Source: Kofleriaceae bacterium (GTDB lineage: Bacteria; Myxococcota_A; Polyangia; Haliangiales; Haliangiaceae). From it: a stretch of 64,000 nt of DNA. The stretch covers positions 1 through 64,000 of the forward strand of contig JBJXGN010000298.1 of assembly GCA_046160585.1 (NCBI GenBank), in the 5' to 3' direction. Shown in pieces: positions 23,306 through 27,907 of the stretch. The position numbers were made by a program, and so were the translations under genes. How positions within the stretch are numbered: position 1 is the first letter of the stretch; each line of letters begins with the position of its first letter. A model generated the notes under the pieces. That model made no database searches. It was not told where the DNA came from and saw nothing but the letters and a program-made list of their open reading frames with translations.

Positions 23306-26300
23306 ATGATCGGGGATCTCGAGCTGACGGTGTTGCACGCCGCAACGGGGGATCGGGGGGCCATCAACGCGTTCGCCGTCACCGATCAGATGATCGTCGC
23401 GACGGGTGGCACGTCGACCAGCGCGACGGTGTTGGCGTCGTCGAACGCGCGCCGCTACGAGCTGCGCACGACACCGCGCGGACTCGGGCTGCGCGACGCC
23501 CTCGCGGTCGGTGACGCGATCTGGGTGTGCGGCGAGTATGGGCAGCTCGCCGCAACGCGGGACCACGGAGAGACGTGGCGGCTCGTCGAGCTCGGCACGG
23601 AGGTCTGCCTGTTCGGGCTCGCACTCGGCACCGATGGCGCGATCTGGTGCGTGGGTGACGCCGGCTTCGCGGTGCGTATCCTCGGCGACGCGCCGGTGCG
23701 GGTGGACTTCGACACCACGGCGCGGTTGTCGGCGGTGTACGCGATCCGCGACGAGATCTGCGTGCTCGGCTTCGATGGCAAGCTGCGCCGGTGGGCCGAC
23801 GGAAAGATCACCGTGCTGAGCACGGGCACGACGAAGCCGTTGACCGCGCTCGCGTGCACGAAGTCCGCGTGGATCGTCACCGGCGACGGGGGCTTCATCG
23901 GACGTTCTCCCGACGGAACCTGGTTCTCGCGTATCAGGGTCGACAGCGACGTCGACCTCGAGGGCGTCGCGACGCTGCGCGACGGGCGCGTGGTCGTTGT
24001 CGGCGATCGCGGGACCGTGCTCGTTTCGCCGGACGAAGGACGCACGTGGATGAACGTGCCGAACAGGCTCGGCCTCGTGCACCTGTGGGGCATCGAGCGG
24101 TTCGGGGCCGGCGTTCTGGTCGGAGGCGACGGCGGCCTCGTCGCGAAGCTCGCGCCGCCCGGCGACTTGACGTGGACCGAGCGCGCCGACATCTTCGGCG
24201 GGCCTCGTGATCTCGACGTGCTGTTCGCCGCCGGACCGAGCGGATTCATCGAGCGCAGCCTGTCGCTGTATCTCGCCGCCCTCGTCGATGAGGACGAGGA
24301 CGAAGACGACGCCGATGACTCGGACGACGATGACGATGATGTTGAAGACGACGAGGAAGGCGACGAGGAAGGCGACGAGGACGGCGACGAGGGCGACGAC
24401 GAGGGCGACGACGAGGAGGGCGACGAGCAGGGCGAACAGAAGACGTCCGACGAGTCCGACGACGACGAGCGAGACGACGACGGCAACCCGGTGGACAAGG
24501 AAGCGTTCGACACACTTGCAGCCGCGGGTGACGCGGAAGACTTCGCCGATATCTACGGCGTGCCGATGCCGCCGGAGGCGGTCGCGTTCTGGTCGAAGAT
24601 CGACGGCGCGAACCCGTGGTCGACGTTCGACGAGCTGAGGCTCGACAACGACATTCGGCCGGACGTCGGTGACCTGAACCTGTTCGAGCTGATGGTCCGT
24701 CGCAACCAGCAGGCCTATCTGGGGACGGATCTCGTCGAGGCGTTCTGCGGTGTGTTCGGGATCGGCTCGCAAGGAAACGGCGACACCTATCACATGGAGA
24801 TCTACGAGTGGGACGGCCCCAGGCAGGTCATCCACTTCGATCACGAGACCGCGTCGTTCTCGGGCGTGTTCGCGGATTCGCTCGACAGCCTCGTGTACCT
24901 CGCGTCGATCGTGAAGCTCGGCGAGGCGCAGAAGATCTCGAAGGACGCGTACGAGCGCGGCATTCACGCGCTGCGCGGCAAGGTCTCGCCGACCTGGCAC
25001 TTCTCGATCGATGACAAGGACGCCGACTTCGTACACCTCGAGCCGAAGCGGCGCGAGACCGAGTTCTTCTTCTATCGCTCTCGCTGGATCTGCGCGCTGC
25101 TCAAGAACGACGGCGTCGTCGACATCGACGACATTCCGGATCTGTTCCAGGCAGAGCTCAACCAGAGCGTGCCGGCGGAGCAACTGACCGCGCGGTACGA
25201 AGCGTGCGAGAAGTTCATCCCGACGGCGCTCTATGCGATGTGGCGCGCCTACCTGTTCGACGAGCCGGAGCTCGTTCGCTACCTCGAGATCGGACGCGTG
25301 CACGCAGCTCGGCTCGTGCGCGATGCCGCGAGGCTGATCGACGACCTGCGCGGAGGACGCAACACGCTCGGGACGATCGCGGATGTCCGCGCGTGGCTCG
25401 AAGCGTTCCGGGCGCTCGACCTCGATCCGCGCGGCGAGGCGGTTCGCGCCGAGCGAGCCGCGGCGAAGGCGGCGCAGGATGCGAAGCGGACCGCCGAGGT
25501 CACCGCGGAGCTAGCGGCGGCGAATCGCGAGACGTGGACGGATCTGGCATGGAAGTGGATCGGCGATGGTGTCGCGCATCGGACGTTGCTCGCGAAGCTG
25601 AACGAAGGTGATGACGCGCAGATGATCGTCGCGCTCGACGAGCTCGCGTCTCTCGACGACGCGCAGCGCGCGGACGCAGTGCCGCAGATCGCCGCGAGTC
25701 TTTCACCGGAGCTGGAGGCGGTGCTCGCGGGCAGCCTATTGCGCGACGACGCGCTCGGCGGTGTCGTGATGAAGCCGGAGCCAGCGGGACCGACGTCGGG
25801 CGGGGAGGGCGACGGCGATCGCGACGAAGACGATCACGACAACGCCGATGACGATGACGGGATGCCGGGGTGGGAGGCGATCGACGCCGCGCTCGCGAAG
25901 ATCTATCCCGATCAGAAGCCGCAGCACTGGGGAACGATCTTGCCGTATGGCCTCGGGGGCAACGATCCTCTGCCGGGACTGTCTGCGTACGAGCGCACCG
26001 AGCCGGTGCCGCACTGGCACTTCGTGACGTATGGCTTCACGGACCTGCATCACAAGGAGACCGACGATTCCGACGAGGAGAGCGGCTACGGCTTCGAGCT
26101 GACGCTCCGCATCGCGCGCGCCATCGACGATCACGTGGCGCCGACATGGGCGCTCAACTTCCTGCAAAACCTCGCGCGCTACGTCTTCAACTCGGGCAAC
26201 GCGTTCGCCGCGGGGCACAAGATGGGCCTGAACGGACCGATCGCACTCGATCACGACACGCCGATCACGGCGATCTGCTTCGCGGACGATCCAGAGCTCG

Positions 26301-27907: not shown

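Follow-up and report, generated by a model that had tools for sequence, protein, structure and literature searches.

What does a SUFU (Suppressor of fused) domain do inside a giant bacterial protein, and what would it bind there? The question is raised by a gene in a 64,000-nucleotide stretch of DNA from a Kofleriaceae bacterium (the window; G+C content approximately 67%), which encodes a protein of 1533 amino acids (aa) that we call the giant. It combines a beta-propeller, a SUKH-like domain with a helical region, a SUFU module and a TPR tail, joined by acidic linkers, and its gene overlaps that of a HEAT-repeat protein, the partner (Table 1). We consider it very likely that the giant is non-enzymatic and serves as a multivalent binding scaffold, in which SUFU is an optional cassette and whose gene is coupled to that of a HEAT partner. 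Its clients may be toxins, as in polyimmunity proteins, or proteins of the cell itself.

The open reading frame (ORF) begins at the first ATG after the upstream stop codon and ends in TGA, and its G+C content at third codon positions (GC3, 0.86) is typical for genuine genes in the window. The protein has a net charge of -151 and no membrane or hydrophobic segment (maximum 19-residue Kyte-Doolittle mean, 1.36), and neither a signal peptide nor a lipobox was found in its sequence. On these grounds a cytoplasmic location is a reasonable prediction, in agreement with an earlier note on this DNA which had described a cytoplasmic giant protein. The four domain types proposed there (propeller, SUKH-like, SUFU and TPR) all survive testing, with support for the propeller that is real but borderline. 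Every recognisable module is a protein-interaction fold; no enzyme domain was recognised in the protein using Pfam, NCBIfam, the structure model or PADLOC.

The SUFU module and its bacterial relatives

The Pfam SUFU profile (PF05076) matches aa 885–1049 with an E value of 1.2e-39 (136.3 bits against a cutoff of 25), covering profile positions 1–171 of 172. Structures of human SUFU are matched at E=1e-38 by the single sequence and at 1.9e-52 by a family profile, and the N-lobe is 34% identical to human SUFU (E=9e-44). The four motifs on which the earlier note had based its claim of a bona fide SUFU domain are present, and the domain, expected at approximately 850–1010, was recovered at approximately 885–1049. 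The similarity also extends beyond the N-lobe: the alignment with human SUFU (4blb) spans residues 3–326 of the 362-aa module and runs through the C-lobe, and the family profile aligns to human SUFU through the C-lobe motif RGRLxHGRxF. Pfam SUFU_C itself scores 16.2 bits in the C-lobe, against a cutoff of 25 (E=0.012). Within the RGRxxHGR motif, none of R1107, G1108, R1109, H1112 and R1114 varies across 41 orthologues; R1107, R1109, H1112 and R1114 are the equivalents of human R386, R388, H391 and R393, lobe-interface residues of helix 6 that pack the C-lobe onto the N-lobe (Cherry et al. 2013). Judged by its sequence, the module is clearly a complete, two-lobed form of the SUFU superfamily.

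Residues Y959 and F967 are kept at the positions of human Y147 and F155, and two GLI-contact residues are replaced (human D159 by H971 and E376 by L1097). Because of these two replacements, no GLI SYGHL-type pocket is predicted; because the lobe interface and the Y959 and F967 positions are conserved, a peptide clamp is plausible. The clamp architecture is thus plausibly kept, but GLI-like specificity is not. Few parts of the 1533-aa protein are as conserved as the N-lobe, and the beta5 strand of the module, GHKMGLNGPI, is nearly invariant in orthologues.

Stand-alone bacterial SUFU proteins of approximately 345–360 aa cover 94% (91–95%) of the module at 40–47% identity, and their hosts include Actinomadura, Nocardia, Lysinibacillus, Paenibacillus, Lysobacter and Planctomycetes. 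By these alignments, the two-lobed SUFU is a widespread and common stand-alone bacterial protein. Some of these proteins (within P0124–P0222, L050–L085) are closer to human SUFU than the module studied here, with up to 40% identity to the human N-lobe versus 34%, so that likeness to eukaryotic SUFU appears to be a trait of a large bacterial family. The idea that this SUFU is specially 'eukaryote-like' is not borne out, and a derivation of the module from a eukaryote was rejected on the same comparison. To our knowledge, Pfam describes SUFU_C as eukaryote-only, which is at odds with near-full-length, two-lobed bacterial SUFU proteins. No recognisable toxin was seen near stand-alone SUFU genes in the two loci inspected (Lysinibacillus and Paenibacillus).

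The closest relatives outside the giant family are stand-alone SUFU proteins of the Kofleriaceae themselves (P0116, P0111 and relatives; 50–53% identity). These share the identical beta5 motif, GHKMGLNGPIAL, and differ in having a basic, histone-H1-like tail of approximately 200 aa rich in Ala, Lys and Ser, with no acidic linkers or extra domains; PF07382 is found in this tail in P0111 and some relatives. The charge of the tail in P0116 and P0111 is opposite to that of the acidic linkers of the giant. The P0116 gene (L005, 8001–9722) lies beside rpsB, tsf, proS and tol-pal genes. In a neighbour-joining tree (without support values), the embedded SUFU modules form one clade that is sister to the Kofleriaceae stand-alone proteins. 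Such a topology points to a single fusion and suggests that the embedded module was acquired once, after duplication of a Kofleriaceae stand-alone SUFU gene.

Accompanying modules, partner gene and conservation

The N-terminal 325 residues contain three conserved Asp-boxes (TRDHGETW at aa 84, SPDGTW at 201 and SPDEGRTW at 241), the D/G/W residues of which are invariant among aligned orthologues. When aa 1–325 are scanned alone, PSII_BNR reaches 27.1 bits (cutoff, 27), compared with 20.9 bits in a full-length scan. Ycf48 structures (8am5) are matched by the family profile at E=3.6e-4, and precomputed PF14870 and PF25852 matches are present in many orthologues. The region is therefore a borderline assignment to the Ycf48/BNR-type propellers, as a fold only; to that extent the propeller of the earlier note stands.

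The SUKH assignment is indirect. This protein has no direct Pfam match to SMI1_KNR4 or to SUKH_3 to SUKH_6 at E<=10, and among 20 orthologous SUKH-helical segments scanned with Pfam, a single marginal SMI1_KNR4 match was obtained (E=0.18). A confident AF2 (AlphaFold2) model of aa 396–830 was obtained from an alignment of 20 orthologues (pLDDT 86, pTM 0.77), and the SUKH fold was recognised in aa 400–545; a Foldseek search of the model against PDB gave no match. A profile of the SUKH-helical module retrieved 233 clusters from 1.84 billion representative proteins. Ten relatives found with this profile at E values between 1e-19 and 1e-57 were scanned, and in five of them SMI1_KNR4 or SUKH_6 falls exactly on the part aligned to aa 400–545, with matches at or above the Pfam cutoff of 25.4 bits in P0446 (26.4 bits) and P0371 (25.4 bits). 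Since relatives carry these families at the aligned position, a divergent SUKH domain at aa 400–545, as the earlier note had proposed, is supported indirectly, by its fold and through intermediate sequences.

The helical region of aa 546–825 travels with the SUKH domain as a single module. More distant paralogues (P0093–P0096) share the propeller and the SUKH-helical module with the giant and end in an unrelated C-terminus. The module also recurs in metagenomic giant proteins of 1400–1650 aa (P0366, P0371, P0390, P0399 and P0446), four of which also contain HEAT repeats and WD40 propellers, and these SUKH-HEAT-propeller proteins look like a wider, undescribed family. The gene context of one such distant relative, P0399 (locus L006), was uninformative.

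In the C-terminal tail, the NCBIfam profile TPR_END_plus matches aa 1472–1523 with 34.8 bits against a cutoff of 32 (E=1.2e-8), which bears out the proposed TPR tail. Matches to Pfam TPR families are weak and all below threshold, and the tail matches include weak ones to the SycD/LcrH chaperone class. The C-terminus itself, WHARQEGN, is nearly invariant among orthologues.

The modules are separated by three acidic, low-complexity stretches, described in the earlier note as D/E-only linkers of 50–70 residues. Linker 1 has that length (approximately 70 aa); linkers 2 and 3 are shorter (approximately 27 and 40 aa), and none is D/E-only. In orthologues, the length of linker 1 varies between 6 and 96 aa (median 22 aa and 25% D/E); long acidic linkers are, by this comparison, a lineage-specific expansion and not a conserved feature. 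All three are encoded by mutually similar, imperfect 12-nt GAC/GAG periodic repeats, which could serve as recombination substrates for in-frame deletions of modules among orthologues.

A search of 5.8 billion proteins returned approximately 96 homologue clusters (39–80% identity), for which NCBI uses the name "suppressor of fused domain protein". The labelled clusters are all from Kofleriaceae, Myxococcales or Deltaproteobacteria, except for one "Acidobacteriota" bin. All homologues come from Kofleriaceae/Haliangiales metagenome-assembled genomes (MAGs) or metagenomes: among the GTDB species representatives scanned, the giant was found in approximately 45 MAGs and no cultured strain, and its closest relatives (78–80% identity) are uncultured Kofleriaceae. 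The earlier note had allowed for a misassembly, should the domains never be fused elsewhere; instead, the complete domain order is kept in approximately 64 clusters (50–80% identity) and across the approximately 45 species-level MAGs. All globular parts are conserved among orthologues, each domain being under purifying selection in one frame, whereas the linkers vary.

The SUFU module is not present in every orthologue. In a MAFFT alignment, exactly aa 853–1210, the segment between linkers 2 and 3, is missing from 13 clusters; the SUKH region is missing from four and the C-lobe alone from one. One SUFU-less orthologue (locus L004) occupies the same syntenic locus and has the same 1-nt overlap with the partner gene. 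In a neighbour-joining tree of the shared propeller and helical parts (without support values), the cassette-less variants are scattered, pointing to repeated losses; this distribution implies that the SUFU module is an optional cassette that was repeatedly lost. Assembly collapse across the linkers was rejected as the main cause of these variants, because in this window the linkers share exact matches of approximately 14 nt at most. Recombination in the cell is a possibility.

The giant is followed by its partner gene with the stop and start codons overlapping by 1 nt and an AGGAGG sequence 7 nt upstream of the partner ATG. Along its length, the partner has a small N-domain and a highly conserved domain of approximately 190 aa, each followed by an acidic linker, and then HEAT repeats and a poly-Asp tail. 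A model of the middle domain (aa 198–388) shows a ferredoxin-like sandwich of generic type, for which neither informative relatives nor a family could be identified. The tail (aa ~947–1013) comprises approximately 65 residues of almost pure Asp and is absent or much shorter in most partner homologues (99% gaps at aa 976–1000). The same gene follows the giant with the same 1-nt overlap in three loci that were read directly and span the family (L001, L002 and L004). Approximately 100 homologue clusters of the partner were found, all from Kofleriaceae and with the same taxonomic range as the giant, and in 20 cluster pairs the two genes are on contigs of equal size. Given the conserved adjacency, the overlap, the equal taxonomic range and the paired contigs, the giant and its partner are very probably made together and act together.

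Table 1. Coordinates of the giant gene, its modules and the partner gene (window positions)
Feature	Position	Strand	Basis
Whole gene, multi-module scaffold protein, 1533 aa	23306..27907	+	ORF, translation, homologue clusters
Ycf48/BNR-like beta-propeller, aa 1-325	23306..24280	+	PSII_BNR, Ycf48 structure match, three Asp-boxes
Acidic linker 1, aa 326-399	24281..24502	+	57-80% D/E, imperfect 12-nt GAC/GAG repeats
Divergent SUKH (Smi1/Knr4-like) domain, aa 400-545	24503..24940	+	
All-helical region, aa 546-825, one module with the SUKH domain	24941..25780	+	
Acidic linker 2, aa 826-852	25781..25861	+	Low-complexity acidic stretch
SUFU N-lobe and connecting helices, aa 853-1060	25862..26485	+	Pfam SUFU, human SUFU match
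SUFU C-lobe, aa 1061-1210	26486..26935	+	Human SUFU alignment, invariant RGRxxHGR motif
Acidic linker 3, aa 1211-1252	26936..27061	+	Low-complexity acidic stretch
Helical/TPR tail with end-cap domain, aa 1253-1533	27062..27904	+	TPR_END_plus, conservation
Translational coupling signal	27894..27909	+	AGGAGG 27894-27899; TGATG: stop 27905-27907 overlaps ATG 27907-27909
Partner gene, 1015 aa	27907..30954	+	HEAT_PBS/HEAT_2

Candidate functions

In the reading that we tentatively prefer, and to which we would give somewhat less than even chances, the giant is a multivalent sequestering scaffold of the polyimmunity type with toxins as its clients. The conserved core would consist of the beta-propeller, the SUKH-plus-helical module and the TPR cap, with the two-lobed SUFU, held between flexible linkers, as an optional client-binding cassette. 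Each module would capture a protein ligand: the SUKH domain through its cleft, and the SUFU lobes by closing around an extended peptide that adds a strand between their two beta-sheets, by analogy with SUFU-GLI although with a different peptide specificity. The linkers would let the modules act independently, and the giant would form a complex with its HEAT partner. Toxin domains are the favoured clients, and several toxins might be neutralised by sequestration.

Precedent for such a protein exists. No immunity superfamilies are more widespread than SUKH and SuFu. SUKH, SuFu, TPR and HEAT are all listed as immunity-domain types (Zhang et al.), and polyimmunity proteins combining SUKH and SuFu, in some cases with TPR, have been described in operons of two to three genes, usually without toxin genes (Zhang et al. 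2011, 2012). The giant carries at least two immunity-type domains in one polypeptide (SUKH-like, SuFu and TPR) and fits this class, by its architecture only; the cassette-like gain and loss of modules also fits polyimmunity biology. The poly-immunity scaffold suggested in the earlier note thus matches a described class and is, tentatively, the best available reading. If toxin binding is true, polyimmunity proteins would be extended to a conserved two-gene system containing a beta-propeller, and the orthologues with and without each module would provide a natural series for matching immunity domains to myxobacterial toxins.

Several observations weigh against this reading. No toxin domain was recognised in the ORFs scanned with Pfam across the 64-kb window (the majority of its long ORFs) or among the genes called in the three orthologous loci; the earlier note had proposed looking for orphan toxin domains nearby. 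PADLOC finds nothing in the giant or in two PPC-domain proteins encoded upstream of it, and in the partner only a weak repeat match to WGR_XIII in the HEAT region (E=7.8e-5). Beta-propellers are not reported among immunity proteins (Zhang et al.). The family looks vertically inherited, with conserved synteny over approximately 45 species-level MAGs, and the nearly invariant beta5 strand and conserved N-lobe fit a conserved ligand better than an arms race. Lastly, the closest stand-alone SUFU paralogue is located beside rpsB-tsf and not in a conflict locus.

The propeller, the stable synteny, the nearly invariant strand and the housekeeping location of the paralogue favour a conserved endogenous ligand. 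It is accordingly possible, and almost as likely as the polyimmunity reading, that the giant is a regulatory or assembly tether which, together with its HEAT partner, would keep one or several of the cell's own proteins inactive or localised, as SUFU does with GLI in animal cells. The client could be, for example, a transcription factor or signalling protein, and the stand-alone SUFU paralogue would cover for the orthologues that lack SUFU. Consistent with such a role are the GHKMGLNGPIAL motif common to the giant, P0116 and P0111, the absence of toxin genes from the scanned ORFs and loci, and the recurrence of the SUKH-helical module with HEAT repeats and WD40 propellers in other giants. However, there is no candidate client and no linkage to a sensor or kinase, the gene pair has no DNA-binding or signalling domain, and bacterial precedent for SUKH and SuFu is all in toxin immunity. 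Moreover, repeated, independent loss of the SUFU and SUKH regions is unexpected for an essential regulatory interface. If the binding of an own protein is true, this would be the first bacterial SUFU known as a regulatory tether and would bear on the bacterial roots of the animal Hedgehog regulator.

A more specific proposal, which we consider unlikely, is that SUFU acts as an animal-like clamp on a regulator of the cell, with two paralogues that share the GHKMGLNGPIAL peptide specificity, one anchored to a scaffold and one with a polycation tail. The SUFU with the histone-H1-like tail might then reside on the nucleoid or ribosome and the giant form on its scaffold with polyanionic linkers, and a bacterial sequestration switch would predate the recruitment of SUFU into Hedgehog signalling. 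Whether the ligand is a toxin or an own protein, the full two-lobed SUFU architecture, C-lobe included, is widespread in bacteria, and because the putative binding strand is well conserved the search for that ligand is tractable.

The genes around the pair bear on a further alternative. Synteny extends to two upstream PPC-domain proteins (1179 aa at window positions 16179–19718; 562 aa at 21555–23243, plus strand) and, downstream, to a FAD-dependent protein and an Lsa36-family protein. PPC proteins of approximately 1170 and 560 aa are encoded upstream of the giant in the window, L001 and L002; in L004, proteins of the same sizes occupy these positions, the PPC match being on record only for the window, L001 and L002. 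The 562-aa protein has a lipoprotein-like N-terminus (LVAGC) and a C-terminal CIGCH motif of the CxxCH haem-c type. The giant could in principle be a cytoplasmic chaperone or export-targeting platform for these secreted proteins, built from folds of the assembly-factor type: the Ycf48-like propeller, the TPR and HEAT repeats and a SUKH domain resembling that of Syd. The conserved position and size of the PPC genes, that lipoprotein-like N-terminus and the weak TPR matches to the SycD/LcrH class would agree with this, as would the membership of the SecY-binding protein Syd in the SUKH superfamily (Zhang et al.). We nevertheless regard it as improbable: these matches are all weak and generic, the PPC genes and the giant are four unrelated genes apart in L002, and in the window an intergenic gap without a coupling signal lies between them. 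Neither a secretion domain nor an enzyme domain with a possible link to the gene pair was recognised in the scanned window ORFs or orthologous loci, and we know of no SUFU role in secretion.

Scarcely credible, finally, is an artefact (a chimeric misassembly or fused gene call, with the SUFU-less variants as collapses over repetitive linker DNA): the linkers are indeed low-complexity GAC/GAG repeats and the homologues all derive from metagenome assemblies, but the same order recurs in approximately 64 clusters that are independent of one another and derive from NCBI, ENA, JGI and Logan assemblies (with contigs of 0.4–6.3 Mb among them, one apparently from a long-read (Oxford Nanopore, ONT) bin), purifying selection acts on each globular domain in a single frame, the exact repeats are too short to collapse an assembly, and the SUFU-less gene in L004 abuts its partner with the usual overlap.

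Genomic surroundings and comparison with known systems

Very large repeat or scaffold proteins are encoded in the window at an unusually high density. These include a 2081-aa TPR-rich giant (42202–48447, minus strand), a 1678-aa HEAT_2 giant (5595–10631, minus strand) and a 1308-aa protein (55705–59631, plus strand) with an N-terminal nSTAND1 NTPase domain (1.3e-15) followed by HEAT repeats, an architecture typical of STAND-type sensors. An ORF that is open at the window start (3–1991, plus strand) encodes a protein resembling the major vault protein (MVP), with matches to MVP_shoulder (2.9e-20) and Vault_3 (3e-11) and to rat MVP structures over MVP residues 474–746 (E=2.9e-15). The presence of an MVP homologue seems unusual for a Kofleriaceae genome.

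With animal SUFU (human 4bl9, 4blb and 4km8; Drosophila 4kma), the Kofleriaceae module shares both lobes, the RGRLxHGR helix-6 motif, the residues equivalent to Y147 and F155, and the motifs HWHxxxxGF, GFGFELT, LARYVF and FxQIVG. It lacks the 80-residue disordered insert of the human C-lobe, and it is embedded in a 1533-aa protein of an organism without a Hedgehog pathway. The stand-alone bacterial SUFU proteins have the same two-lobed architecture, but are single-domain proteins with GHHMNVNGPI or GDYLDANGPI as the beta5 strand in place of GHKMGLNGPI. The Sufu-like immunity protein of the Neisseria NGO1391 type (cited in Zhang 2011) belongs to the same superfamily, and was not retrieved from PDB by the family profile at E<1. 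As for the propeller, Ycf48 is a photosystem II assembly factor and a lumenal or periplasmic lipoprotein of phototrophs, whereas the Kofleriaceae protein has no signal peptide or lipobox and its host is not a phototroph.

Among the closest known systems are the polyimmunity proteins, which likewise place SUKH, SuFu and TPR modules in one cytoplasmic polypeptide, are encoded in small operons with a second repeat-protein gene and usually no toxin gene, and vary in module content between genomes. A fusion of SUFU and SUKH is therefore not unprecedented, as such proteins had already been described; no published account of the propeller-SUKH-SUFU-TPR architecture was found in the literature, the one paper to name both "suppressor of fused" and myxobacteria being unrelated. 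The Kofleriaceae giant differs from polyimmunity proteins in having a beta-propeller and in being conserved family-wide, with stable synteny and a highly conserved binding strand. The novelty of the Kofleriaceae system lies in a propeller and a coupled HEAT partner, added to the known SUKH-SuFu-TPR theme in a two-gene scaffold that is conserved within, and specific to, this family.

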